Translations under genes and position numbers: made by a program
NCBI GenBank assembly: GCA_951406725.2
Contig: OX597825.1
Location: 48,174,001-48,238,000 of the forward strand
Length of the DNA: 64,000 nucleotides
Source: Octopus vulgaris
Lineage: Eukaryota
Direction: 5' to 3'
Notes under the pieces: generated by a model
Databases searched by the model: none
The model's input: only the letters and a program-made list of their open reading frames with translations
Told to the model about the DNA's origin: nothing
Shown: positions 3,760-61,516 of the stretch, piece by piece
How the letters are laid out: each line of letters starts with the position of its first letter
Position numbering within the stretch: position 1 is the stretch's first letter

Positions 3760-6750
3760 CTCGTTCCCTCTATTGGTACCGATGACACGCATTGATGTCT
3801 CAGCTTGCCTACCATATCACACATGCTTTCACCGAGGATTTTATGCCATCTTTAAACTGTAGCCTTGGTTTCTGCTGAGGGCGCTTTTCACAAACAAGTT
3901 CACAGTGTAGCATCTGCTTAGGGATCCTCCAATAATTCATACAAATAAGGTGTCCAGTTTAATGTAAATGGTGCTTGTGCACCATCGCTTCAAAGCTCAG
4001 GACCAATCAACATTCAGAATGTCTCAGATTTCTCTGATGGAAACGTTTAAGGACCCTTACATGATACCTGTAAAAGGTTCATGTATCACATGAGAAATGT
4101 AGCTACGTCTGGACAAATGCACGGTACGCAGCAATTTTTGTTCTCCTTGTGATGCTATGTTTGAACAAGACTCAGGAACCTTGAAGGAGTCAATTACCTT
4201 TCTGAAGTCAGCGGCTGAGTTTGTTGCCTAGGAGGACAAACTTGTCTATCACTTTCTGTACTGCTCCTCAACTAAAATAGATGGTCTCAGAGATAGGTTT
4301 CCTGGCGAAGGCTGGAACATTACAACAGTCCTATCCAAGCGACTACTGAGTTTAAATGCCTTAGAAGATGCAAAAATATGATTCATGAAAAATTGCATGT
4401 CTTCAGCTGTATGAGCAACTAAGTTGTGATCATTTGCATAAAGGAAGTCATGAATAAGAGACTGAGAATTTTCCGAAGTGACAGTAAATTGATGCAAGTT
4501 GAAGAGACGTTCGGTACCTGACTCATATATCCACATATATCTCAGAGGAGCAAAATCATGAGTGAGAGTAGCAGCAAAATACAAAGAAAAGAGAGTTGGG
4601 GCAAGGATGTAGCTTTGCTTGACACCATTTTCTTCAGAGATAGGTCCCGCCATAGCACTGCCGACACTGACCCATGCCGCCATCCAATCATGAAATGATT
4701 TAATTATCGATACAATGTAACTTGGACAACCAAGTGGAAACTGTATCAAAGTAACTCGGACAACCTGTAGAAACAGTATCGAAAGCTTTGATTAAATCAA
4801 TGAAAATATGGACAAGATCTATATTTTGCTCATAGCACTTCTACCTCTGTCTTGCTGTGAAGATAATTTCCATTGTTCCTTTATCAGAACGGAAGCCACA
4901 TTGAAATTCAGATAGAACGCCAGTTTCAAGGTATTTATTCATGTGGGCAAGAAGGATACTTACCGGCACCTTACCAGCAGCTGACAGTAGCACAATACCG
5001 CTATGGTTGCCACACTTTATTCTGACTCCCTTTCTTTTACAATGAGGAAGGATAATAGCATCCTTCCAGTCCTTGCGAACAGTACCATTCCTCCAGACTA
5101 CACTAATAAGCTCGGAAATAAGCTCGAAAATGCAAGACCTAAGCGCGAATTCCGTCTTTACCAGGTACTTTACCAAGATTCAACTTGCATGTGGCTATTA
5201 CTACCTTATATATTGAGAGTGCAGGGTCCAAGGAGTTGATCATAGGTGTTTGTTGAATAGTATCAACTGCAGCATCATCTATAACTGACTAACAGTTTAG
5301 AAGTTCAGAAAAAATTTAGTAAGCAGGGTAGCATCCTCTTTGAAAAGAATTCTTAGGCCCATAAGCTTGCTTGATAAGATGGTAGATCTTCTTGCTGTCC
5401 TTTGCATTAGCAGCAGCATGAATCTCACGAGCAGGATCTCCCCACCAGATATTCTGCATCTTTCCGAGTGATCGCTGCAGTAGAAATTTGGTATCCTTAT
5501 AATAGGTAAATGTTAGATTCTTCTGTACAACTGATTGCCCTCTGTGAAGAAATACACTGTGGGCATTGCATTTTGTAGACAGGGGTCTCTGAACCTCAGC
5601 ATCATTTTCGTCGAACCAGTCCCCATAATTAGCTGTAGCATATCCAAGTGTTTCAGCTGTGCATTGAAAAATCTAAAATTCTGCTCAAGTTGTAGTATCT
5701 TCGATGCTGGATAAACGATCCCGAAGTTCCTTCCTCACAGTTGGATCATATATCTTACGAACATTTAAACGCCGAAAAACCCCAGCTTACTTTCTTCTAT
5801 CTTTCACTCTGGTTACCGTCAGGGATTTTGCTCGCACCAAGAAGTGGTCTGTCCAACACTCTCAGAGTCCCTGAAAGGACTTGTCATTACAGATATCACG
5901 CTTGCGGTTGATAACATAACCCTGCAAGTGCATCGATGGGCATTGGGTGCATCCATATTGTTGTGTAATCACATTTGTGTGTAAAGTTAGTGCTAGCAAA
6001 GAAAAGGCCATATTCATCGCAAAGCTGTAGGAGCATGAGATCTTCCTACACTGCAACACCCAAGAGACTTCCATGCTTACCAATCTGTTCCAACCCAGCT
6101 ATTGAAATCCCCTAGCAGAATGAATTTGTATGCCTTGGGAATTTTCCTGAGTACAGCTCTCAGCTAGGCATAGAAAGTTGTTTTATCTTTTTGAGAATGA
6201 GTCAGAGAAGGAGCAGCGTCACTAATCAGAGTAGCAAATCGTCCATCTCACAAATACAGGAGCACAGTCATCAAACGGTCGTTTACAGAGATAGGAAGCT
6301 CCTCCAACTTCTTGAGGATTTCAGATCGAACTGCAAAACCAACGCCAGCCTCTCTATACTCCTTTTTTTTTCCCTTCTAGAAAAAAAATGTAACCACCCC
6401 AACCTCATCAAGCTGAGCATCACCTTCCAAACGAATCTCTGAAAGAGCAGCTGATTTATGTTATATCTGTTTATTCGCGAGCAACAAGTGCAGTACGTCT
6501 CTCAAGCCTATATTCACTCTTCTTATCTAATAAAGAACGCACATTCCAACATGAAATATTTATCTTCCAGACAGATTTTTAAAATATTTTCTCTATTTTC
6601 CGCGCGCAAGGTGGACATCCACCAGTCGCGTTAAACTGATCAGACAGAAAAAGACAGGCAACTTTTAGTCCACCTTTTCTGGAGCCACACCGGTCGCCGG
6701 GTGCGAAGTGCCCTCTTCAAACGGAGCTGTTCAGGCACCAACGCAGCAAT
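3760..6750 (-). mobile_element. Degenerate near full-length RTE-clade LINE (APE + RT)
   Basis: Minus-strand pieces WKDAIILPHCKRKG..CGNHSGIVLLSAAGK..EFQCGFRSDKGTMEIIFTARQ and NGVKQSYILAPTLFSLYF..FLYAND (decayed YADD); endonuclease GDFN remnant near 6100; many stops and frameshifts. Confidence 0.88.
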
Positions 6751-13500: not shown

Positions 13501-13872
13501 TGTTGTGTTACCCTCTAACATAAAACACAGCACATACTCTACGCAGTCACCGCCCAATTCTATAACACAGGTCACACAACATATTACACTCAGTCACATC
13601 TATAGAATAATCCACGCTGCACATATTCTTCGCAACCACCTCACAATACTAAAGTATAAACTATAACATACATATTCTAAATAGTCATCCAAGAATACAG
13701 TAACGCAACCTACACGATATTATATATAACACATATTCTACATAGTCACCTCCAGATACTATAATGCAACACATGACTATGTGCAAGAATGGTTGTGTAT
13801 AGGTATGGCTATGTACATTGGACGTGTGTTTGCAGGACTGTGTTGGATAAGCATATGGTTGTACTTATGGCT

Positions 13873-14108
13873 GAGCTGGTGGCGAGCTGGCAGAAACGTT
13901 AGCACGCCGGGCGAAATGCGTAGCCGTATTTCGTCTGTCGTTACGTTCTGAGTTCAAATTCCGCCGAGGTCGACTTTGCCTTTCATCCTTTCGGAGTCGA
14001 TTAAATAAGTACCAGTTTCGCACTGGGGTCAATGTAATCGACTTAATACCTATGTCTGTCCTTGTTTGTACCCTCTATGTTTAGCCCCTTGTGGGCAATA
14101 AAGAAATA
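13873..14108 (+). mobile_element. Complete tRNA-derived SINE (family A)
   Basis: A-box-like gagctggcagaaacgttag, B-box-like gagttcaaattcc, tail gccccttgtgggcaataaagaaata; exact 16-bp TSD ggttgtacttatggct at 13857-13872 and 14109-14124. Confidence 0.93.
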
Positions 14109-14573
14109 GGTTGTACTTATGGCTATATGTACGTATAGATATGTGTGCGTATGGCTGTGTGTAGCTATAGCAATGTGTGCATGTAGATATAGCAAGGTGT
14201 ATGTGTAGGTATGGTCATGTTTTCGTATGCCAGTGTTTTATGTATTGCTATGTTGATATGGATGCCTGTTATTATATCTGTGTAAAGATAAGTCTGTGTG
14301 TTGGTGTATCTGGCTGCGTGTAGGTATGTATGTAGGTATACCTGTGTTTAGGCGCGAGTGCGATTAGGTATGGCTGTGCGTGTTGGTGACGCAATGTGTA
14401 TACATACGGCTGTATGTAAGAAGGGTTGTGTGAAGGTACGGCTGTGTATGTTGGTTTAAGAGTGCGTAGATATGGATGTTCGTACGTATGGCTGTGTGTG
14501 TATGTAGGTGTGGGTGTGGAACAGGAACGGCTATATCTAGGCATGGCTATGTGTATGTATGAATGCGTGTTGG

Positions 14574-21173: not shown

Positions 21174-22827
21174 TATTTCATTAAATTGGCCATATAGGCC
21201 TTACAGAGAGAAGCTTGTGGGCTGGACATGGACAAGATGAGATGAAATGAAACAAAATGATACGGATGAGAGGGATGAAACCTCACACTGCTCTGTCAGT
21301 GGCACACTTCCCACTGACGGAGCCCTATCCGCAGGTGGCACACATCCCACCTGCGGCTCCGTCGGCGGCCCAGGAACATCCGCCGACCGTCCTCTGCTCC
21401 TCTTTTTCCTGTTTCTTTTTGAGGCTGCGGGAGCAGGGGGCTGCGTCGACAGACGCGAGGGGTCGCTACCCTCCTCCACCGCCTGAACATTTTTGGTGAG
21501 CAGTTGCTCACCTTTCTTTTTCTTTTCGTGGAGGCAACTTCCTCCACGACTTCCACCGTCTCCCCCTCCAATGAGGGGGCGGCGGGCACCTTCTCTTTCT
21601 CATGCTCCAGGGCCCCACCACGGCCCCCTGGACAGTTCTTTTTGATATGGCCAGGCTCCAGGCACAGGTGACACTTGGGGGGGGGGGGCGTCCCTCAAGT
21701 ATCACCAGGTACCTGTACCCGGCCATTTTTAGGAAATCCGGAAACATCATGTCTCCCACGGCCACCGGGGTCCACAGGGTTAAAGTTGCCTTTGACCCCT
21801 CCCAGTCGACCGCGGGAGTAATCTTCACACTCAATAGCCTGGGCCCGCTATCCCCCAGGCCTCGCCGGATGGTCTTCTCGATCCATCCCGCCTCCGTTCC
21901 CGGGGCAGTCCGCACACCCTGGCTCTTCTTATCTTCCTCCCACAATAAGTGTGGAGGAACAAAATTTCTTCTCCCTCAAGGGGCTCGCTGGCAAATCTGC
22001 CAGCTTCCTCAGAGGTACCAAACAGCAACCACACCGTTGCAAATTTGGTCCCCCGTGAAATAAATTTTATAGTTGGCAGGTAGTCTGCCAACTCTTTCTC
22101 TATTACGCTCTTGTCGAAGAGGGCGATGGCACCACACGACCTAGAATAGATCCGTAGTACCACCGTCCTCTTCTCAAGATCTTTAATCCACTGTTTGGGT
22201 CGGACCACCTCCCACTCCAAAGCAGCGGCACCGTTTATTTTTCCCATGTGCAAAAGAAAGTCTTAAGAGTTCCAAAAAAAAGTCCAAAGGTCAATAGAAT
22301 GTAAAAAAGGTTCACAAAAAGTTAAAAAATACAAAAAACAAAAAAAAAAAAGTAAGTCCAAAAATTAATTAGCTGTTCAAAAGGAAAGAAAAAATCAGAA
22401 AGGATAAACGGAAAATAAAAAAACAGTTCACACAGCAAAAATCCAATTGGTCAACAGGTAATCCCGGCCTAATGTGGATAGGTTCCTTGGCATAAATCTT
22501 TTTTGTTGTCCGGTAATTCAAACACAATACAGCCAACAACAGCAACAGGTTCTATTCGGGCGAGGATACGCCCCACCAAAAATGAATCCAATAAATTCTC
22601 AATACACAAAAACAGCGGCCGCCGAGAGCAGGCGAAATTGTCCCAGAGCTGGGCGCAATTTACTGAAAAAGTAATTCGCACGCAATAAATTATGCCCAAC
22701 TCACAACACACAAAATCACCTACCTCGACAACCTTCTCTGTTTTTGTTCTTTTTTCTTTTTAGGACGGAGCTGAAAGCTCACCTCCTCACCGTTCAGTGT
22801 CAAGAAGTCAACTCCACGACCGGAACC
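21174..22827 (-). mobile_element. ORF1-only L1/Tx1 derivative (HAL1-like), TSD-flanked
   Basis: Exact 15-bp TSD ggaagcaagcttctt (21159-21173, 22828-22842); 5'UTR; frameshifted ORF1 from ~22247 with CCHC knuckle CHLCLEPGHIKKNC; short 3' tail with GGCC hairpin; no ORF2 remnant seen. Confidence 0.82.
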
Positions 22828-30635: not shown

Positions 30636-30829
<194 letters not shown>

Positions 30830-30830
30830 C

Positions 30831-32660
30831 CTTTCTTTATTGGCCACAAGGGCCGCACACAAAACGTAAAGAATGATACAACACAAAAGACGGTGGGGAT
30901 TTACATACAATGCGTGTAAAGAATAAAAAAAAACAATGACTATGATCAATAAAAAATCCAACAATAAAATTCCCGAGAAGGGGTGGGGCAAGCTCCACCC
31001 AGAGGCAGCCAAGGAACCGCACACATTCTGGACTCTCGGAATGCTATGGGTAACTCGGTAGTATACCCCTCTCCTCTCCATTTCCTCCAGCCAACAGGCG
31101 CATGCTCAGAGTAGGCCCATTCACACAGGCAATCCTTGTTACATTCACCCAGCTTTCAACAAAAATACTGGAAGGCAGTACTTCCCTCTTCACTCTCGTT
31201 TTCCTTTTCAAGCGGAACCTGAAAAAAATCGATGCAGCGTCACCACGCCACGGCTCAGCACTGGGAATTCTTCCGTTCTGCTGCGAGATGTGGTAGACAT
31301 CAGCCGATAGATTATTGAACAGGTCTGGTATATGAAAATAAAGATCGAAGGGCTGGCTATCCAGCCACAGAGAGTTCTCCCTTGCATGACTCATCACCGC
31401 CTACCGTCTTCGGCTGTTATCGGCACCTTGCAGAACTCTATTTGCCTATGAAGGCGGCGAGCTGGCAGAAACGTTAGCACGCCGGGCGAAATGCGTAGCC
31501 GTATTTCGTCTGCCGTTACTTTCTGAGTTCAAATTCCGCCGAGGTCGACGTTGCCTTTCATCCTTTCGAGGTCGATATAATCGACTTAATCCGTTTGTCT
31601 GTCCTTGTTTGTCCTCACTGTGTTTAGACCCTTGTGGGTAGTAAAAAAATAGGTATTTCGTTTGCCGTTGTTCTGAGTTCATATTCCGCCGAGGTCGACT
31701 TTGCCTTTCATCTTTTCGAGGTCGATTAAATAAGTACCAGTTACGCCCTAAGATAGATGTAATCGACTAGACCCGTTTCCCACAAAATTTTCAAGGCATT
31801 GTGCCTAGAGTAGAAATAATTATTTCCGATAGCTGGATCCGTCCTACATGTAAGAGCAGGTGCTTGACATAAACCCACATGTCAACAATGGACGAGAGCA
31901 TGCAGAACAATTTCGTCGCTCTAAGGGCATCTCGGACAAGCCTAGTTGGCAGCACTTCCATACCTGCAAAGTTTATCCCGTACTGCCAATGCAACTCAGT
32001 AGCACTGCCAGGCCAAAGATTTCTGGAAATTATTCACAGGCCGCTGCCCAAATGTTCTTGGGAAGAGACAAGCCAATTGATTCTTTTCGACGCCTAGAGT
32101 CTCCCCGAGAACGTCGTCGCACTTGCCCGCCACTAACACTATAAAAGAGGAACTTTCACTGATCGCATTGCCCTCTAATAGGGGACTGTGAGTGCCTGAC
32201 GATACTCTAGGTGCCGGGCGCCCTGCTTAGGTCTATGCTTGATTCAAGACTATAGCTCAGTGAAAGAGACGAGCTGTGAAAAAGCGAGTCTGACAAACGG
32301 CGACCACACTTGCTCACCGTAGATGGAGATGTAGCTTCAGCGCATGTTTGCGCTTCAGCAGCCAAATGATGCTCAGCTCTCCATTCAACGGGTTTTGACA
32401 GCAAATGGAGCCCCTGACCAGTGAAACGTATCCTTTCCACAGAAAGCAGAGGGGTGTGCACTCTAGCATGGTCAGACGTAAACAGGAGCAAGGCATGACG
32501 GGAAGGCGGTATATATATGATGGAGGCAATGTAAGCATTCGCCACTTCTGCCCGACCTTTCAGGGATAGCTTTCTCTCAGTTCATTTTTGTCGAGATTGG
32601 CACCCTCCTCGTCACTTCGTCCCAGTTCCTTTTTTAAACAAAAACTGAGGGGCGTGTTTG
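30831..32660 (-). mobile_element. Rearranged L1/Tx1 LINE fragments interrupted by SINEs
   Basis: RKLSLKGRAEVANAYIAS (~32570), FQKSLAW (~32020), QQNGRIP joined to FRLKRKTRVKRE..WVNV; 3' end gcccttgtggccaataaagaaag. Confidence 0.78.
31448..31820 (+). mobile_element. Dimeric SINE (family A monomer + second monomer)
   Basis: Two SINE bodies in tandem joined at aaataggtatttcg. Confidence 0.85.
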
Positions 32661-34997: not shown

Positions 34998-37900
34998 TTA
35001 AAATGCCTCGGGCTAGTATTAAAGGAGATTAAATACCTGGCAAGAGGTACCAGTTTCGCAACAATTGAAGCACGGTTCGAGTCGGCTGAGAAGGCCAGGG
35101 ATTTCTCGACTCGAACCGTACAAAGTGGGAATATTCTGCTTCTTCCCTTGTATTTGGGCAGAAGAATCTCCCGGATCAAAATAAAAAAATATACCGCCAG
35201 AGGTAGAGGTGGTGTGGATAGCAGCTACCATTCTCTTCGGTCGGGAGGAGAAGATAAAAATCATCCAAATCACCAGAGACGCCCGCAAAACTGGCGGGGT
35301 CAAACTCTGGAGATCCTGGCCCAGACTTCTTTTGAGGATTTAGAAACCTCCCTGAGACCATACAGATCGGGGAGGAGACGGTCTTGACGGTCAACGTAGA
35401 GGGAAGAAAACCATGTTGCTTTAAATGTGATAAGAAGGGACATATAAGACAGAAATGCCCGCAAAATAAGGATAAAGAAAAGGAGAACAAAGATGAGGCG
35501 ACGCCCCCAGCCAAGGAGGCTGTTACCCAGAGGGCGACAGCCTCCACCAATATAAAAGAAGCACCGATGGCCCCAGCCATGGAGGCTGTTACACAGAGGG
35601 CGTCGGCAAACACCAAAAATTTAACACCAGCGCCCACAACCAAGGAGGCTATTACTCAAAAGGCGTCCGTGAACAACAAGGTATCGCCCCCCCCCCAGCC
35701 ATGGAGGCTGTTACAAGAGTGGAGGCCGCGGTCACCAACATAGAGGAGGAGACGACCCCCGCCAAGGAGGCGGTTACACACAGAGTGTCCACCTCCTCTA
35801 ATACTAACACTAATACAAATGCAGTGGAGACCACAGCCAGGGAGGCTGTGGTAAAGAAGGTGGCCGAGAGTAAAATTATAGAGGAGGAGACGCCCCCCGC
35901 CAGGGAGGAGGTTACACAGAGGGCGTCTACCTCCTCTAAAGCAAATGTAGCGGCACCCCTAGCCATGGAGGCTACTATCAAGAGGGCGTCCGCTAAGGAC
36001 AAAACAGCCGTGATACCGTCGGAATAGGAAATGGAATTCCAGATGGTGTCATGCAAACGTCCAAAAAATGGAGTCGTCCACAAAAAATCAAGAAGCGGCC
36101 CCCAAAAAGTGGTTAGAAAAATTGAGAAAACACAATCGTCCCACACGAAGAGTAAAATGTGTTTAAGATGGGTACAATTACCAAATAAGGAAGAAATCGT
36201 GGTAGCGGCATATAAAAAACATAATAAATACCTGGTTGGAGTTATTAAGCCGCACCATAAAGCACATGTATATAATAACACAATTAATAATAGTGTAAAA
36301 ATTAATAATATAGTAAAACTGCTAAGAGAACTCCTTTTTCGAGTTAAAATATAGATAAAGAAAAGACATTGTGGAAGTGAGGGATCGTCCTAAATTATTC
36401 AACCCACTGATTAAGCCATTTTTAGATGAGAAGAAAGAGGAGGAGGGGATTGTCCCACTAGTACTAAGGTCTATCCCACTCGAAAAAACGAAATGAGGAA
36501 GGTAAGCTCTGAATTTTTCTTTCTTTTTCTCTTTGATATGACATGGCTGCACTACTTATTGGCTGTTTGAATGTGCGTGGCTTAGGGTTGAAGAGGAAGC
36601 AGGCTTGTTTTCTCGACGACCTCATAACACACAGAATAGATGTGATGGTTGCTACAGAGACCAAGTTGGACAAGCTGCATGCTTTCTCACCTCTCCTGAA
36701 CGGCTATGAGAAAATCGTGTCTCCTAGTCAAACCGGGGGGGGGTGTAGTTTTGCTCCGGAAAAACTTGGATCTGCAGACACGTACAATCTTCGTGGACCC
36801 AGAAGGCGAGTCGGTCGTTCTGGATCTGACATACAGTGGTAAGGCCTTCAGGTTGGTTGGTTTTATGCGCCTAACGCGACAGGCAAACGGAATGAGCTCT
36901 ACCAACGTCTCGAGAATTTCTCGGTGACGTCGAAAACACTAGTTGTGTTAGGTGACTTTAATGCTATTCTTGATGCACGCCTGGATAGCGTTGGCTCGAA
37001 CGATAGGAAATGTGACTCACGCCTCGTCGATCTGCTGAAGCGATTTAAGGTTGGCAGATCGATTCAGGCTTGATAATCCGAGCGTGCCAATGTGGACGTA
37101 GACTAATTACGACGGATCAATTAGGTTTATATAGATAGCATCATAGTTAATGCGATAGATAAGTCTAGTGTAAGTTGTCCACAATTTGCCTATGTACCCT
37201 ACACGGATCACAAATTAGTGACGTGTAGGTTGTATATAGATAAGGTTCATAGACAGGGATCTGGCTATTGGAATTTGAACAAATCCTTATTGGATTACAA
37301 AGCTTACCGTAGCCAGATTAAGGTGTTAGTTATGAGGGCACTAACTGGCACTGTATTTAATAACCGATGGTGGGGTACCCTCAAAAGAGCCATTCGCACT
37401 GAATCATTTAGATTTATTAAACAGTTACGTTTAGAGAAGAAGAGAGTAGAAAGGGACTTAGTTAAGGCATTAGAAGAGGCGCTAAGGGTGGGCTCTGCAT
37501 CCCAAGTTTTGGCGGCGAGATCGGCCTTTGACCGACGCCTCAATACCAAACATGAAAGATGCAGAGTTCGGGCTAATGTACGTGCAGTGGGTCGCTAGGT
37601 ATCAACGTTTCCGGGCGGGCTCGCTCGGTAGAAATCCAACGTGCCGTGGATGCTACGATTAGGTCTGTGACAAATGAACATGGACAGGAAATCGAAGGAC
37701 AAGGTCTTTCACGAGCACTTTCCTGCGTTGTTCAGGGGTGGGGAACGTGGGACCATGAGGATGCCCTCAGGATTTCCTGGCCGGCGGCCCGTGTCTTTCG
37801 GCGCGAGATGTTGAGCGCTGTGAAGGGCCGATGACGGCTGAGGCGATCACAAAGGTACTTTCCGAGTGCCCCGGGGACAAGTTGCCGAGACTGGATGGTC

Positions 37901-39833
37901 TACCTTACGAATTTTATAAATATATGCCAGATTTGTTCGAGAACATACTGGCCAGTGTTTATGCGAATTGGTAGCAGAATGGAAGAATTCCCAAATATGT
38001 GAGCCGAGGAGTGGTGACACTGATCAGAATGGACCCGAGCAAGGGAGATAACGTAAGTAATTTTAGGCTCATAACTCTGTTAAACACAGAGCTAAAGATT
38101 TTGGATAAGGTGTTAGCGAGGAGAATGAGGATTGTCGTTGGAGGCCTGGTGGGAGAGGCGCAAACATGCGCCATCCCAGGAAGGACGATGTTCGATAACC
38201 TTCATCTCATTCGCTACACCATAGAGAGGGTTGGAAAAAATTCTGGAAAAGGTGGGGTACTGGTGAATTTGGATCAGTCTAAGGCATTCGATAGGGTTGA
38301 CCATCGATATCTGGCAACGGTTATCCGGGCGGTCGGACAGGGCCCGACCTTCCGAGCCTGGATCGAAGCTTTGTATTGTAACATCGAATCTGCTGTCCGG
38401 GTGAATGGGTTCTTAACGAGCCGTTTGCGATTGAACGTTCGGTTCGTCAGGACTGTCCCTTGTACTCGCCCCTATATGTACTGGCTCTTGAGCCGCTACT
38501 GTGGAGATTGGGAACGTTGCTATGGAGGGCCGAGGTTACACAGGTGTTTATAGCATCTGTGATAACCTAACGCCTAACCGTCGTCCCTTGCCCCAGTTTG
38601 TGGTTGAACAGGTTGGAAAGGATCCTTTTCGCTTTTTATGGAAGGGGAAACCACCGCTTGTGAGGCACTCCATTTGCTGTTAGAAACCGACTTGGCTGAT
38701 GATGCACAAGTATGCGTTGAGGCTGAGGCACCTTCGGCGCTACCTGGATGGTGAGCAGGTGTGGTTACCGCATGTCAAACAGCTTTTTCTTCAATTGGAG
38801 CCCCTTAGGGACTTAGGCACATGAATCAGGCGGAGACCTAAAATGGGGGAATGGCAGAGAGAATGCAGACAAGCACTCAACCTGTTCTCTCGGGCGAGCA
38901 ATGCCGCAGTGAGGTTACGACTGTGGATTTCTATAGAGGGATAGTAGAGTTTAAGTCTGATGACGTCCTGGGGGAGGGCTCTGGGCTTGGATATCGAACA
39001 ACTAGCCAGCCTGTTCGAAGGGACATTCGGGCCGAGGTATCTGGATAATTTCCAAAAATCCTTGGCTTGGTTGTGCTGTCGTTCGGCCTTACCAGTTCTA
39101 GAGAGGTTATCAAGGCACGGTTACAACCCTACCCCCGACATGTCCGAGGTGCGGGCGCGGCAGTGAAACTGTCGCGCACGCCTTCGAACATTGTGTGGAA
39201 TTGAGGGACTGGTGACCCATGTGAAACAACTGATGTCCGATGGGGGAAGAGTACGGCTCTCGACTGAGTCCATAGTTAAGACTGTACCGCCTCCCTCCTT
39301 TAACAAGGAAAGGAAAGCTGCTTTCTTCTGCGTAGTTGCCATAATGAAAGAGACAGTGTGGAGGATGCGCGCAAAAGGAATTGAGACAGGTCACTTCTCT
39401 CCGGACAGGGCTTGTAAAGTTGGCTCAACTTCCACCTCGTGAGGAAAATTCGTCTGGAGAGGAAGTGCCTGCCCCAAAGTGTATATGAGAAAAGATGGAT
39501 AAGCGTGGTAAGAAAATTGAGAATGAATGGGGCCGTGTTGGTGTAGCTGGTCAAGGGAGAAGAAGGAAGGAAGCGACCCCCCTCCCCAGGGAAGTAAAAC
39601 AAAGGTCTAAAACCGGCGGATTGAAATGGAACCCAGAAAAAAATTTTGTAAAAATTCTTAATTATATATCATTAATTTTTGAACCCATAACGTTTCTGTC
39701 ATTTTAACTCTACATTCGTAATCACAGGCGCATGGACCCCAATACCCTGTAATGCATGTCCGTTGTTTGTCCCCGACCCACCTTTGTGTTTATATATCTT
39801 TGTCAGGCCTTTATAGGCAAATAAAGAAATCAT
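34998..39833 (+). mobile_element. L1/Tx1-clade LINE, 5'-truncated in ORF1, decayed ORF2
   Basis: 13-bp TSD tccatgtctgtct (34985-34997, 39834-39846); ORF1 CFKCDKKGHIRQKC; ORF2 from 36543 MAALLIGCLNVRG..ETK..GDFN..TDH; RT NFRLITLLNTELK..DQSKAFDRVDH; YADD region deleted; tail ggcctttataggcaaataaagaaat. Confidence 0.93.
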
Positions 39834-41940: not shown

Positions 41941-42258
41941 ATGAAGGCGGCCATCGAGGTTGACTTTGCCTTTCATCCTTTCGAGGTCGATTAAATAAGT
42001 ACCAGTTACGCACTAGAGTCGATATAATCGACTTAATCCGTTTGTCTGTCCTTGTTTGTCTCCTCTGAGTGTAGCCCCTTGTGGGCAGTAAAGAAATAGG
42101 TATTTCATTTGTCTTTACGTTCTGGGTTCAAATTCCGCCGAGGTCGACTTTAGTTTATATCCTTTCAGGGTCGATAAATTAAGTGCCAGTTGCATACTGG
42201 GATCGAGCTAATCGACTGGCCTCCTCCCGAAAAACTTTGTGCCTAGAGTAGAAAAGAT
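41941..42258 (+). mobile_element. Dimeric SINE
   Basis: Same two-monomer layout and junction as 31448-31820. Confidence 0.83.
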
Positions 42259-42848
42259 TCTTATATATTATGGACTTCCTGAACTATGAACTTCCTGACC
42301 AGCGTCTGTAAAATTATGTAAACATTGAATGGTTTATATGTATAAAACAAATGTTTATCAGACAGAGTTGGGATCTGGGTTTAATTTGATACACCGCGCT
42401 GCTAAACTTCATACTAATTCATACTAATTGTGTGTGTGTGTGCGCGTTGTTTCAAAAAGCGTGTCATTGGAGTGGGGAGTTCGATAAATGTGAAAAGGTT
42501 AAATAAGTTGGGAACAGAAATAAGTAATGAGATCAATGTAATCGAATAAAACACGGTAATTTCTTTATTCTTAGTTTTAATAATGATTCATCCAAAAACC
42601 TTAAGAGGGTGAGGAAAAATATTCAGTTTTATGAACTAGTAGTTTACTGGTATTTGTACTTATTTTAACAAGCTCAAAAGATTGAAAAACAAAGTCAACT
42701 TCAGAGGAATGCGAACTCAGGAAGGGCCGTCAAGCACTTTGTCCGACGCTCTAATTATTTCGCTAAAAGAATATTTCTATCTTTGTAAAGTTAGCCTTGC
42801 TCTCATTGAAAGGATATATTTATATAACAGTGTGGGCTGTACTGTACA

Positions 42849-44144: not shown

Positions 44145-45286
44145 TACCCCTGCTTATTTGCGGTTCGGTATTCGCGGAAACTACCGTATATTCGCGAAAT
44201 CGTAAATATCGTCATATACATGTGTATGTGTGTGTGTGTGTGTGCATTCCTATATGAGATCCAAACGATGGAATCTGCCTTGGCATTGTGCATCAGTGAC
44301 GCAAGAAGAAAAACATCCCATTGAATGGTAACATCATCCGTGAGAAAGTGCGGAAATCATGCCAGCAGTTCGACAGAGGAGACGGAACAGAAGTCATGGA
44401 AGAACCGCAACCAAGACCATTGACAGCACCAGAACCCGAAGACTTTCAAGCCAGCAAGGGATGGTTTGACCGTTTCCAGAAACGATTTTCTGCATGGAGA
44501 GACAGCGTCAGCCGACAAGGAAGTCGCCGAGAAGTAACCTTCAGGCAGATCAACAAGGACAAGGGATACAAGCCAGAACAACTGGCCTGTTCTGGATGAA
44601 GGTGTCTTCCAGAACGTACATCATAAAGGACGAAGCCAAAACCCCAGGATTTAAGACACAAAAAGACAGAGTGATGCAATGTTGCTGGCTTCATGATGAA
44701 ACCAGGACTTATCAACAAGTCCGCATACTCGCGAGGGCTGTCAAAAATAAAAATAAAAATCTGCTGCCTGTCCACTGGATGTACAACCCCAAGGCCTGGA
44801 TTACCAAAAGTCTAACTTTGAATTGGTTCCACCAATGCGTTATCACCTCAAGCCAAGGAATACCTCCAAAACGTAGGCATGGAATTCAAGGTGTTGCTTG
44901 TTATGGATAATGCTAGTGGTCACTCTTTGGATTTGAATCACGAGAGAGTCCAAATCGAGTACCCCCTGCTAACACCACCTCCCTCATCCAGCCTATGGAT
45001 CAAGGCGTGATCCATGCCTTCAACGCACTTTACACTCGGATCTTCATCCCAACATCTGGTGGACGCAATGGATTCCGACGAGAATTTCAAGTTAAAGGAG
45101 AACCGGCGTAACTTTACGATCGCAATGTACCTCTCAGTCATCCACGCTGCTCTTAAAGACATATAATATTTTACGTTATATTTTGACATTATAGGCATAT
45201 TTATGGACCACGTCCAATATTAGCGGGTTTTCGTTATCCGCGGGTGCTCTAGGAACGTAACACCCGCGAATACCGGCGGACTACTA
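44140..45286 (+). mobile_element. Tigger/pogo DNA transposon, internally deleted and decayed
   Basis: FQASKGWFDRFQKRF (CENP-B-type HTH end), LPVHWMYNPKAWIT..WF, MDNASGH, NTTSLIQPMDQGV (DDE_1); TIR-like ends within TA repeats. Confidence 0.9.
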
Positions 45287-48689: not shown

Positions 48690-48915
48690 GATTTGTTTAT
48701 AGTGGTCAAATACATATACTGTAGATTAACTCACGCCCTCAATCAAATCGACGTTGTCTGAACAGGTGCACTGTGTAGCACGCTTCAGGTTCGAAGTGAT
48801 CGTAGAATAATATATAGTGAAGAGTTTAGCTCAGGAACGCAAAGCTACACCCAGACCAGGAACTGAAACCACGATCTCGCGATCGTGAGTACAACACCAT
48901 AACCACTAGGACACG
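48690..48915 (-). mobile_element. tRNA-derived SINE (family C), decayed
   Basis: Minus-strand head resembles 61517-61600. Confidence 0.55.
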
Positions 48916-49002
48916 TGACCGATGTTCGGTCAAGCCTGACCTTTCTAAATTATTTTAACATTTTCTGTCTTGACATTTTTTCCATATATATTAACTCGTG
49001 TG

Positions 49003-49086
<84 letters not shown>

Positions 49087-49106
49087 GACACACACACACA
49101 CACACA

Positions 49107-49178
<72 letters not shown>

Positions 49179-49280
49179 AATTTTTGTTGCAAGATTCCTC
49201 ATGTGAAACCGTATGTTGAAAAAGATATTGTTATACTTCGGGATGGTCATTTCTTTTTTTTTTTGCCAAAGAAACATACA

Positions 49281-49332
<52 letters not shown>

Positions 49333-49796
49333 TCATTCTTCACTCGTTTATTATTGTTCATATTTTATCTTATGTCCATTGTCTGGAATAATGATAAACG
49401 ATGCATGTGTTTATTTGGCCAAAAAGAAAAAATATGATCATCTCGAAATAACAATATACATATATAGTTTTGTTGAAAGTGAAAGTTTGTGTTGCGATTC
49501 GAATTTCAACCCACTACGATTTTCAGGCGAGAACTGTTGCAGCTCAGTATTAGCGGTGTATTTATGTCCCTTGATGTGAATCTGTGTGTAAGTGGTTGTG
49601 CTTGTTCGTTGGTTTGTGTGTCGTGTTTAAGTACCGTTTTTCTGGCTTCTTCGTTGATTATTTAGGTTTTATTTTTGTGATATGGTGTTTGTATTTCTTG
49701 TAATTGGTAGCGGGATGGTGTGTTATTACTTTGTTTATGATCCGCTGGAAAGTTGGTGGTGGGCCACTGAATCACAGGTGTGTGCACAGATATATG

Positions 49797-52341: not shown

Positions 52342-52705
52342 TCCTTTCTACTAAAGGCACAAGGCCTGAAATTTGTGGAAAGTGGATTACTCGATTACAT
52401 TGACTCCAGTGCGTAACTGGTACTTATTTCATCGACCCCGAAAGCCGACTTCGACGGCATCCGAACGTAAAGACGGACGAAATACCTATTTCTTTATTGC
52501 CCACAAGGGGCTAAACACATACGGGACAAACAAGGACAGACAAACGGATTAAGTCGATTATATCGAGCCCAGTGCGTAACTGGTACTTAATTTATCGACC
52601 CCGAAAGGATGAAAGGCAAAGTCGACGTCGGCGGAATTTGAACTCAGAACGTAACGGCAGACGAAATACGGCTACGCATTTCGCCCGATGTGCTAACGTT
52701 TCTGA
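52342..52705 (-). mobile_element. Dimeric SINE
   Basis: Reverse complement of the 31448 layout with the same junction (cgaaatacctatttctttattgccc). Confidence 0.85.
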
Positions 52706-52760
52706 CAAGCGATAATGACACACACGCACGCAAACGCGTGCAAATACGTACCCCTCCCTG

Positions 52761-58900: not shown

Positions 58901-59617
58901 GTCATGATATTATATTATAGTAAAGAGATAACACTTAACCAATGCAGCAAGCACCAAACACCCCATCTCACTACTTCACTACATCTGACCCCACACCACC
59001 ACACTATGCGTTCTATCAGTACTACCCTATATCCCCTACAATACAGCACCACACACCTAACTCCACCATGCTACACCACTTCTCATCACACTAGACCATA
59101 CCAGTTTCTTTACCCTACACCATATACCACCCCATACCCCCCATCATTCTACACTAGACCCCAGTCCAATTTGCCCAAATTATTCTTTTTTTTTAGTTAC
59201 TAAAGATGTTTTTGTTTTTTTTTACTTATTCTTAAATTTTCAATGGTGGAGACGTTTTTAAACTTCTGAGTTGTAAATTTCATCTTCATATTCTGACTTT
59301 AAAATGTTTAACTGCATCTGACTCCCCTGTCTCCTCATATACTTCAATGTCATTGGTTCAGTATCAGCTGGTATTAGTTTTGTTTGTATCAGCAGCCCTT
59401 AAAGTGTGACCTGTCTAAATGCACAAGTCCTTGCAAACAATTAAACACATAAATATTTATTTTATCGCAAATGTTTTGTTGGTAAATATTCAATGCTAGT
59501 ATTATCTCTCTCTCTCTCTCTATCTCTCTCTGTTTCTTCTTTTAAAAATCTAAAATATTTGGCAGTTTAAAAAAATTTTTTTTTTTTTCCTTTTTATCTT
59601 CAGATTACACAATAAGA

Positions 59618-61319
59618 ATGGGGGAAATGCAGTTTTCTATCTCCAATATCCACTATGAACCACTGAAGTGGACAGGTAGTCCAAACCAGAACTCTCCTCA
59701 TCTGACAATGCAGCCCTCTTATCTAAACTGGGAATCTTACCCAGCTACACAGGAAAGGACCACACCTTATGAGAAACGGTATAACACTCTGGAGAGTGTT
59801 CTCTTGGGCCAAGTTCCTGCCAGTTATTCCCATTTAACTACCTCACCTCACCTATCTTCATCACCATCAAATTCTTCATCTTGCTCTACATCACCCTCTC
59901 CAACAGCATTTTCAGATCGTTCTTTCTCAGCCAGTCCTTGCTACTCTACTGGTCAATCATTTTATCATAAATCTGACGTTTCTCGCTCTTCAGCATCAAG
60001 TCCATCAGGTTACCAATCAGAACCAATGGATTTATCTTGTAAAGGCTTTTCTTCATCTGCATCTTCAATTTGTTCGACAGGAAGTAGGAAATCTATTTGT
60101 AGTGACAGCTCTGGCTATGGAGGAGAGGAGCACCAACTAGAAGATGCTACATTTCCATTAACATATCAATATACACATGACAATGGTAGAACAACGGATC
60201 CTTCACTCCTTTCTTCCTGTGGTACCACATACATGTCAGTGGATCAGCAGGCCATGCAAATGGCAAATTCTTCAATAAATCAACCTCTCAGAAGCAGACA
60301 TTCTCCAATCCAGTTTCTTAGTGATACTTCAATTCAACAGCGACAATCTCCTATCGAAAATCACTTATCAACAATCCCCCCATTACATCAGCAGCAGCAG
60401 CAGAAACAACATCAACTATTAGATGTACCACACCATAGTTTACAACAACAGTCTTCAAGTGTCCAGAGCAGTGACATGTCTATGGAAATTCAACACAGCC
60501 TTGCTATGCAGGGTCAGTCTTCACATAAGAAAGACTCATGTAATAACTCACCGAGCAGGCACTGCATCTCTCCAAGATTAGTATTACATCATAATTCATT
60601 GACTGGCCACCAAGATGAGCATCGGTCACCTTGGCAATCTACTTCCCAGCCTCAACTATCCCAGCAGTCTTTGCAGAATAGTGATTCTTATCAAGCTGGT
60701 ATTGATAGCCGTCCATCTCCACCGCTCCAGAACCAATCTTCAACCCAATCAAAAAATGGACATTCACTCTTGCGAGATCTTCTCAGTTGTGGTCGAAATG
60801 ATTCCAAACAAAATAAAATGTCATTATCGTCCTCATCAGACTTTTCTTCCATTTCTTCATCAAATTCTTCCTCAAATGATGACACTATGTCACAAGAAAA
60901 AGAAGCTAAAATAGAATATGATGGTTCGAAAGATTACTTATTGTCTAGCACAGCTCGTGTGACCCTGGCCAAAAAAAACCTTCTGCCAATCAGCGCCCGT
61001 GTCACTGAATGGCTTTACAAAATGGTCAAGTTTGCTAAAGAAATTCCTCAATTTATGAAGCTTCCCAACAACGACCGCCTAACGCTCATCTTGAACTCAT
61101 GGACTCGTATGCTGTTAATGCATATGGCTGAGAATAACTTCCAGTTTGCTGTCACGCCTCTTCCATCATCTCCAGCCCGTGACCACGAGGTTCCAGCGTC
61201 TGATGAACCAACCATGAAGTCTGTTGAAAGTATACAGAGCATCATACGCAAATGTCAGTGTATGAACTTGGATAGTTCTGAATACAAATACTTAAGAATG
61301 TTGGTGCTTTTCAATGCTG
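59618..61319 (+). CDS. NR0B: NR0B (DAX1/SHP-like) orphan nuclear receptor without DNA-binding domain, first coding exon (3' partial)
   Basis: 567-codon uninterrupted frame; acceptor polyT-cag at 59603, donor G|GTTAGT at 61319/61320; LBD signature VKFAKEIPQFMKLPNNDRLTLILNSW and PTMKSVESIQ..KC..EYKYLRMLVLFNA like DAX1/SHP; no C4 zinc fingers; LxxLL motif. Confidence 0.9.
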
Positions 61320-61516
61320 GTTAGTACCATTTACTTTTAAATAGCTGTGTGCATGTACACTTAGGTGCATCTATACTTGAATGCATGTGTTTGTCTAAGG
61401 ATGCATGTGTGTGTTCTCAGGCAATACTCTCAATGAGAAACAAACTAGGCCGTATCTGTGTATATGCTCTCTTTCTCTCTCTCTCATGTGTATATATATA
61501 CACACACACACACACA

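Follow-up and report, generated by a model that had tools for sequence, protein, structure and literature searches.

The SINE copy and the LINEs of the window

The window, by which the whole stretch of 64,000 nucleotides of Octopus vulgaris DNA is meant, contains a 236-bp SINE copy at 13873..14108 (+), composed of a tRNA-like head, a central domain, and a Tx1-type tail. Its 16-bp TSD lies at 13857..13872 (+) on the 5' side and at 14109..14124 (+) on the 3' side, where it begins with GGT, as in most copies. The head folds better than shuffled sequences (z -3.4) and has A and B box-like motifs by eye; ARAGORN and Rfam gave no tRNA match for it. The tip of a head hairpin at 13916..13940 (+) is the insertion site for LINE family S and for further SINE copies, and it is present here as the C variant, which is the variant held by young S copies. 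The central domain presumably resembles the Meta domain, and we take OK to be the family label of the SINE. No match for the SINE was found in the two supplements of the MetaSINE paper that were searched, and the 66-bp Meta consensus is printed as a figure.

The tail starts with a U-rich block at 14050..14083 (+), which is common to Tx1-like 3' UTRs; for the final portion of this block, pairing with AAUAAAGA is predicted. It continues with the stem-loop GCCC-CTTGT-GGGC at 14084..14096 (+), having a 4-bp stem and a 5-nt loop, and ends with the fixed terminus AATAAAGAAATA at 14097..14108 (+), without poly(A). SINE dimers are also present. In the dimer at 41955..42262 (+), the tail is directly followed by a second unit beginning at head position 49, and the dimer at 52345..52707 (-) ends with a second tail type and then ATT repeats. 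A stem with a CTTGT loop is found in this second type too, which occurs in the window at 31795, 52366 (-), 33442 (-), and 56468 (-), and in 18 cases among other loci (L203-L285). Some of its copies end like LINE family D, and an ATT run follows 5 of the 18, which suggests a second borrowed tail.

Three LINE-derived elements of the window also end without poly(A). A decayed two-ORF Tx1-like LINE, family W, lies at 34998..39830 (+); its hairpin at 39807-39818 has the stem GCCT/AGGC, and its 16-bp TSD has one mismatch. A 5'-truncated Tx1-like LINE of family D occupies 30828..32600 (-), with an approximate 5' limit and a SINE dimer lodged within it at 31453-31820. Its end near 30828 comprises the stem GGCC/GGCC and the same CTTGT loop as the SINE, and the ends of its family D relatives lie on ATT runs. 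The third element, an ORF1-only derivative at 21174..22827 (-), has a hairpin tail with the stem GGCC/GGCC and a 15-bp TSD, and lies within the head of another SINE, at the site that family B uses.

The original prediction had quoted the 3' ends of the SINE, of the LINEs at ~39830 and 30831, and of the ORF1-only element, and all four are present in the sequence. Its statement that they have no poly(A) was upheld, and its range of 13-16 bp covers the TSD lengths of the SINE, the 39830 LINE, and the ORF1-only element given above. The resemblance that it saw between the SINE tail and the local LINEs is a weak one: compared to shuffled sequences, the SINE tail gives z 5.8 on the 39830 end and z 10.6 on the 30831 end, but z 0.8 on the ORF1-only end. 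The alignment scores on the three elements are 37, 26, and 14. Better partners occur elsewhere in the genome, where other Tx1-like families reach z 17-27. The window LINEs are relatives of the partner and not likely drivers of the SINE.

Relatives of the window LINE (L051-L061) have ~300 bp of downstream flank in common, pointing to another fixed target repeat. The window further contains a 592-codon frame at 59546-61324 (+) that terminates in the ligand-binding domain of a nuclear hormone receptor (PF00104, E 1e-8), a DDE_1 transposase fragment at 44470-44910 (+), a decayed RTE-like fragment at 4267-5146 (-), and a ZIP transporter match below the cutoff at 48903-49391 (+).

The Tx1-like clade and its 3' end

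A genome search with the RT of the window yielded 150 scored copies, and 60 such loci, in addition to further sets, were fetched. Young LINE copies comprise an ORF1 with a CCHC zinc knuckle (PF00098, present in families A, B, C, and S) and an ORF2 with APE endonuclease, RT, and zf-RVT. Two ORFs, these ORF2 domains, and a long TSD, all present in these LINEs, are the features of the L1 group. Among solved relatives, human L1 ORF2 ranks best, at 222 bits; for nine fish proteins with the names TX1 or pol-like, the values are 254-317 bits in seven cases and 226 and 172 in the other two. For the LINE protein, the nearest named homologue is from Argonauta; neither the protein atlas nor the first homologue search gave Tx1-named matches. 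In the RT tree, 17 tail-bearing copies with enough RT and the Argonauta protein form one clade (100/100). Together with fish Tx1 this clade makes up a 100/99 group, apart from CR1, RTE, and R4, and it is a separate lineage within that group. The family D and N rows were left out of the tree for their short RT coverage, and the clade is labelled "Tx1-like" because no vertebrate L1 was included.

Several families of the clade target repeats or microsatellites: the main SINE is the target of S, a second SINE that of B, and runs of ATT (D), CT (E), or ATCT (F and G) those of four further families (L142-L170, L324-L328, L333-L340). Family B (L040-L043, L050) and the ORF1-only element lie at the same base in the head of this second SINE, and family B has a 26-nt block in common with the tail of the main SINE. 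Family C (L034, L044-L046) occupies one site of a repeat, with a 17-bp TSD. Copies of the young families A and C are lined up head to tail in arrays, where the TSD recurs as a spacer (G000:C9:59.207-59.249 Mb, C5:29.18-29.21 Mb, C2:73.04-73.07 Mb; L031-L036); the C9 array contains 8 LINE units of ~5,277 bp each.

The type of end found on the SINE, in which a U-rich block precedes a short stem-loop and a poly(A)-less terminus of the AATAAA type, is present on ~15 families of this one L1-group clade, and in every family of the clade whose 3' end was reached. One 40-locus set used for LINE ends included five loci without a C-terminus and a few truncated or misplaced ones. The SINE tail is identical in 48/54 alignment columns to family H, in 31/34 to family S (its last 34 nt), and in 26/28 to family I. 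Its score is 74 on H; families S, K, M, and O give 53-58, and family C gives 16. Family H, the best overall match, is represented by one decayed copy with a different flank.

The control ends comprised one CR1, four RTE, and one R4/Dong, and the RTs fetched included no L2 copy. The R4/Dong-like control (L287:3900-6650) lies inside a Tx1-like copy and ends on AAT repeats. On these controls the SINE tail scores 10-15, with z between -1.2 and 1.6 over the terminal ~72 nt and at most 2.7 over 300 nt, so that the better fit to RTE or CR1 by which the original prediction could be judged was looked for and not found, nor was one to R4/Dong. It is very improbable that the SINE is moved by CR1, RTE, R4/Dong, or L2 and that its Tx1 likeness is due to chance or an AT-rich artefact. 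CR1 does account for 24 of the best 30 RT loci, and Table 1 of PMC13282606, in the portion of that source available, gives more recent CR1 and Dong-R4 insertions than L1-Tx1 insertions in the octopus annotation. However, the CR1, RTE, and R4 ends score at background and terminate in ATT, ATAG, or AAT repeats, the identity to a Tx1-like end extends to the 48 of 54 columns above, and the insertion base is common to S and the SINE. For the six control ends tested, movement by another LINE is largely refuted.

The hairpin was checked on 21 hand-chosen representative LINE-type ends. Of these, 16/21 have a stem with 4 or more Watson-Crick pairs no farther than 3 nt from the terminus, against 0.96 expected; without three rows anchored by eye the count is 13/18, against 0.77 expected. 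These counts are not independent because the representatives are kin. The remaining ends comprise four with 3 pairs and one mutated copy with none. The stems vary in sequence, with GCCC/GGGC, GGCC/GGCC, GATT/AATC, AACC/GGTT, TGCC/GGCA, CGCC/GGCG, AGCC/GGCT, and TACCT/AGGTA, and the close relatives B and B2 are one compensatory pair apart. Two common SINE variants retain G-U pairs in the predicted fold. A kept stem with a varying loop had been noted; the pairing is indeed kept, but the stem sequence differs and the loop is at times identical (CTTGT).

The covariation check that had been proposed gave a mixed outcome. In a structure-blind MAFFT alignment, 9 cells are changed on both sides, compared to 4.3 expected, a number reached by 1/500 shuffles, and 76% of cells pair at the stem positions, compared to at most 53% when slid. 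The covariation score on the same alignment was matched by 50/500 shuffles, and RNAalifold gave no consensus structure for it. Taken singly, the tails are no more stable than their shuffled versions (z 0.04 to -1.6), and the hairpin is absent from the minimum-energy fold in 3/9 tails. As the pairing counts are positive while the folding tests are null, the hairpin is backed by position and compensation and not by energy.

These weak folding statistics are in line with a different role of the tail, in which the SINE is Tx1-driven but not via the hairpin. The tail would be a passive template-switch relic, AATAAA a polyadenylation signal, and target and start would be set by the endonuclease and short RNA-DNA pairing. 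AATAAA, the best-kept motif of the tails, may owe its conservation to use as a polyadenylation signal, and an A-run is present at the end of 1/30 close SINE copies (L091). The covarying stems across LINE families speak against this role, as do the copies that stop a few bases past AATAAA without poly(A), and the stem retained in family B and the ORF1-only element, in which AATAAA is shifted. Taken together, a tail without a working hairpin appears unlikely.

Insertion of family S and of the SINE

Family S is a two-ORF LINE of 5.35 kb. It was picked up by a pattern allowing a different last base. Two earlier types of pattern, which required a LINE with the exact SINE ending followed by GGTA or AGAAACG, gave no same-strand ORF2 upstream in 60 loci, and instead retrieved SINE variants and tiny truncated inserts. 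ORF2 similarity is present upstream at 28/30 S loci. A count by eye places 79 of the 96 exact S-type tails at one base of the SINE, with the SINE site after the tail; the C variant is present in 52 of the 79 and the G variant in 25. Among background SINE heads, 12/52 have the C variant, and the C-variant site follows only 2/129 SINE tails.

At C-flanked S loci the 5' end of the LINE is visible in 17/20, behind SINE head positions up to 63, and all 17 have a 16-nt TSD. Most of these copies are ~5.35 kb, and one has a 1101-codon ORF2 frame. The TSD routine for LINE rows gave array or same-locus matches in several rows, and the clean rows alone were used. The S copies are 99% alike but the flanking SINE parts, which have different tails and their own TSDs, are 87-89% alike, so the insertions are independent; the same values led to the rejection of a composite in which S is carried along by a single SINE. 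Older S copies (88-94% to the query) use the G site, as does the main class of the SINE. Young S has moved to the C site, which is seldom used by SINE copies.

The SINE is very abundant in the 2.8-Gb genome, where a 20-nt tail pattern matches exactly at least 69,004 times and its reversed control once. From loci around the first 100 among the matches listed, 129 distinct SINE tails were obtained. Directly after 64 of these comes SINE-internal sequence, mostly from head position 49, and this stacking gives arrays with a 184-bp unit. The other 65 copies are terminal, and their flanks start with GGT (23), TAT (16), or AGA (6). Among 61 terminal copies with non-simple flanks, a TSD was detected in 27, with a median of 16 bp and some spanning whole arrays, and none was found for 34. 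SINE insertion is far less site-specific than that of family S. The comparison of TSD length and target called for by the original prediction gave agreement: the median of 16 and the insertion base are shared by the SINE and family S.

The flank class of the SINE tracks its tail variant: an AGA flank follows 9/22 CAA tails and 1/79 TAG tails (Fisher p 2e-6). Mismatches within TSDs include a few cases each way, with the first flank bases either RNA-templated or target-derived. Four very short inserts (L175, L177, L191, L196) consist of hardly more than the terminus between TSDs.

The direction of the likeness between S and the SINE has to be considered as well. It is rather unlikely, if a little less so than the hairpin-free tail, that S took up its SINE-like terminus through recombination or template switching with the SINE that it targets, or that the direction is mixed, in which case the S match would be no guide to the driver. 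Two S copies carry a SINE-type terminus (L384, L388; probably one duplicated event), and older S copies often lie directly behind a SINE tail. On the other hand, the sister family of S, family I, is located outside the SINE and has the stem-loop of the SINE. The LINE origin of the tail holds either way, because the whole clade has this tail.

The tail in common and the insertion of S at one spot of the SINE make it likely that Tx1-like elements copy the SINE. The preferred reading, to which we assign a probability of about 0.8 from sequence comparison, is that the SINE has the hairpin end of the Tx1-like clade and is copied by the proteins of this clade via the folded tail, with reverse transcription starting just after AAUAAAGAAAU. 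A Tx1-like partner appears well supported at the clade level, and a family-level partner likely. The prediction that a Tx1 system drives the SINE is supported; that this system is stringent is what we infer in addition.

The SINE tail would have been acquired from a Tx1-like 3' UTR. The ORF2 protein would bind the tail hairpin, nick the target, and begin reverse transcription at a fixed point. The main GGTA-flanked SINE class may have been driven by older S copies, and sister families of S are the probable drivers of the TATA- and AGAA-flanked classes. RNA read through a few bases past the tail could pair with the nicked target, and such pairing would explain the subfamily-linked flanks, the self-stacking of the SINE, and the LINE arrays with a TSD spacer. 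Several drivers with different endonucleases would account for the flank classes equally well.

A wider picture is more tentative, and we place it somewhat short of even odds. It describes an animal L1-group lineage without poly(A), in which a 35-nt hairpin would set the start of reverse transcription and read-through bases would pair with the target and so help to choose it. A major SINE would have captured the tail and become the landing site of its carrier, and the target of each family would be inherited from the place of its master copy.

Comparison with known SINE and LINE systems

The OK SINE of octopus was reportedly described by Ohshima and Okada in 1994. MetaSINEs and the OK SINE are presumably similar to the present SINE in having a tRNA-like head, a Meta-like central domain, and variable tails, of which the octopus SINE has two types. 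The partner LINEs of MetaSINEs are stated to be unknown in the available part of the MetaSINE paper (Nishihara 2016, PMC4824008).

Stringent pairs of other LINE clades, such as UnaSINE1 with UnaL2 and the bivalve SINEs with CR1-14_CGi and L2, resemble the octopus system in their common tail, stem-loop, and compensatory changes, according to the accessible portions of PMC3747384 and PMC4824008. In contrast, the L2, CR1, and RTE pairs in these portions have a different LINE clade and short tandem repeat ends, whereas the octopus SINE has a fixed base and then a 16-bp TSD. Within the L1 clade, ZmSINE2/3 of maize and sorghum are paired with LINE1-1_ZM, and SINEX-3_CR of Chlamydomonas with L1-1_CR (Ohshima 2013, PMC3747384, in the part available). 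These pairs have a 3' end in common with a covarying hairpin, which is taken there as stringent recognition. They are neither Tx1 nor animal, and their ends are A or T runs; no other L1-clade pairs with a shared tail are listed in the part available. The SINE/LINE pair table, as contained in that part of the paper, lists neither a Tx1 partner nor a cephalopod SINE.

Crocodilian SINEU has been assigned to Tx1-Mar LINEs by their common target (Kojima 2015, PMC4494074; accessible portion). As in octopus, the Tx1 families of that account target other repeats or microsatellites, tandem insertions sandwich the TSD, and the SINE is less specific than the LINE. SINEU differs in its snRNA heads, its poly(A), and its Mariner target, and no LINE with its 3' end is reported in the same portion. 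The octopus SINE has a tail in common with the LINE, lacks poly(A), and is itself the target. The element at 21174-22827, with ORF1 remnants, a LINE tail, and no ORF2, is similar to HAL1-type ORF1-only LINEs as characterized in the part of PMC5786205 at hand, but it is Tx1-like and site-specific for a SINE head.

The literature searched (including the available parts of PMC4758252, PMC5804259, PMC10294476, and PMC8967140) contains no SINE with the 3' end of a Tx1 LINE and no partner LINE for the octopus SINE. Repbase, Dfam, SINEBase, the 1994 octopus paper, and one MetaSINE supplement may hold an earlier description.

Octopus-like genomes are dominated by SINE expansions, and for one of these the system points to a likely driver. 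As an animal L1-group example of structure-based RNA choice, it bears on whether poly(A) recognition by mammalian L1 is a derived relaxation, a question raised in the accessible text of PMC3747384. The young near-intact families with different stems and targets comprise a panel for how LINE target specificity changes. Stringent L1-clade pairs are already known from plants and algae, as are Tx1-driven SINEs from crocodilians; within the literature searched, and as far as its available parts extend, a Tx1 pair with a shared tail is apparently new.
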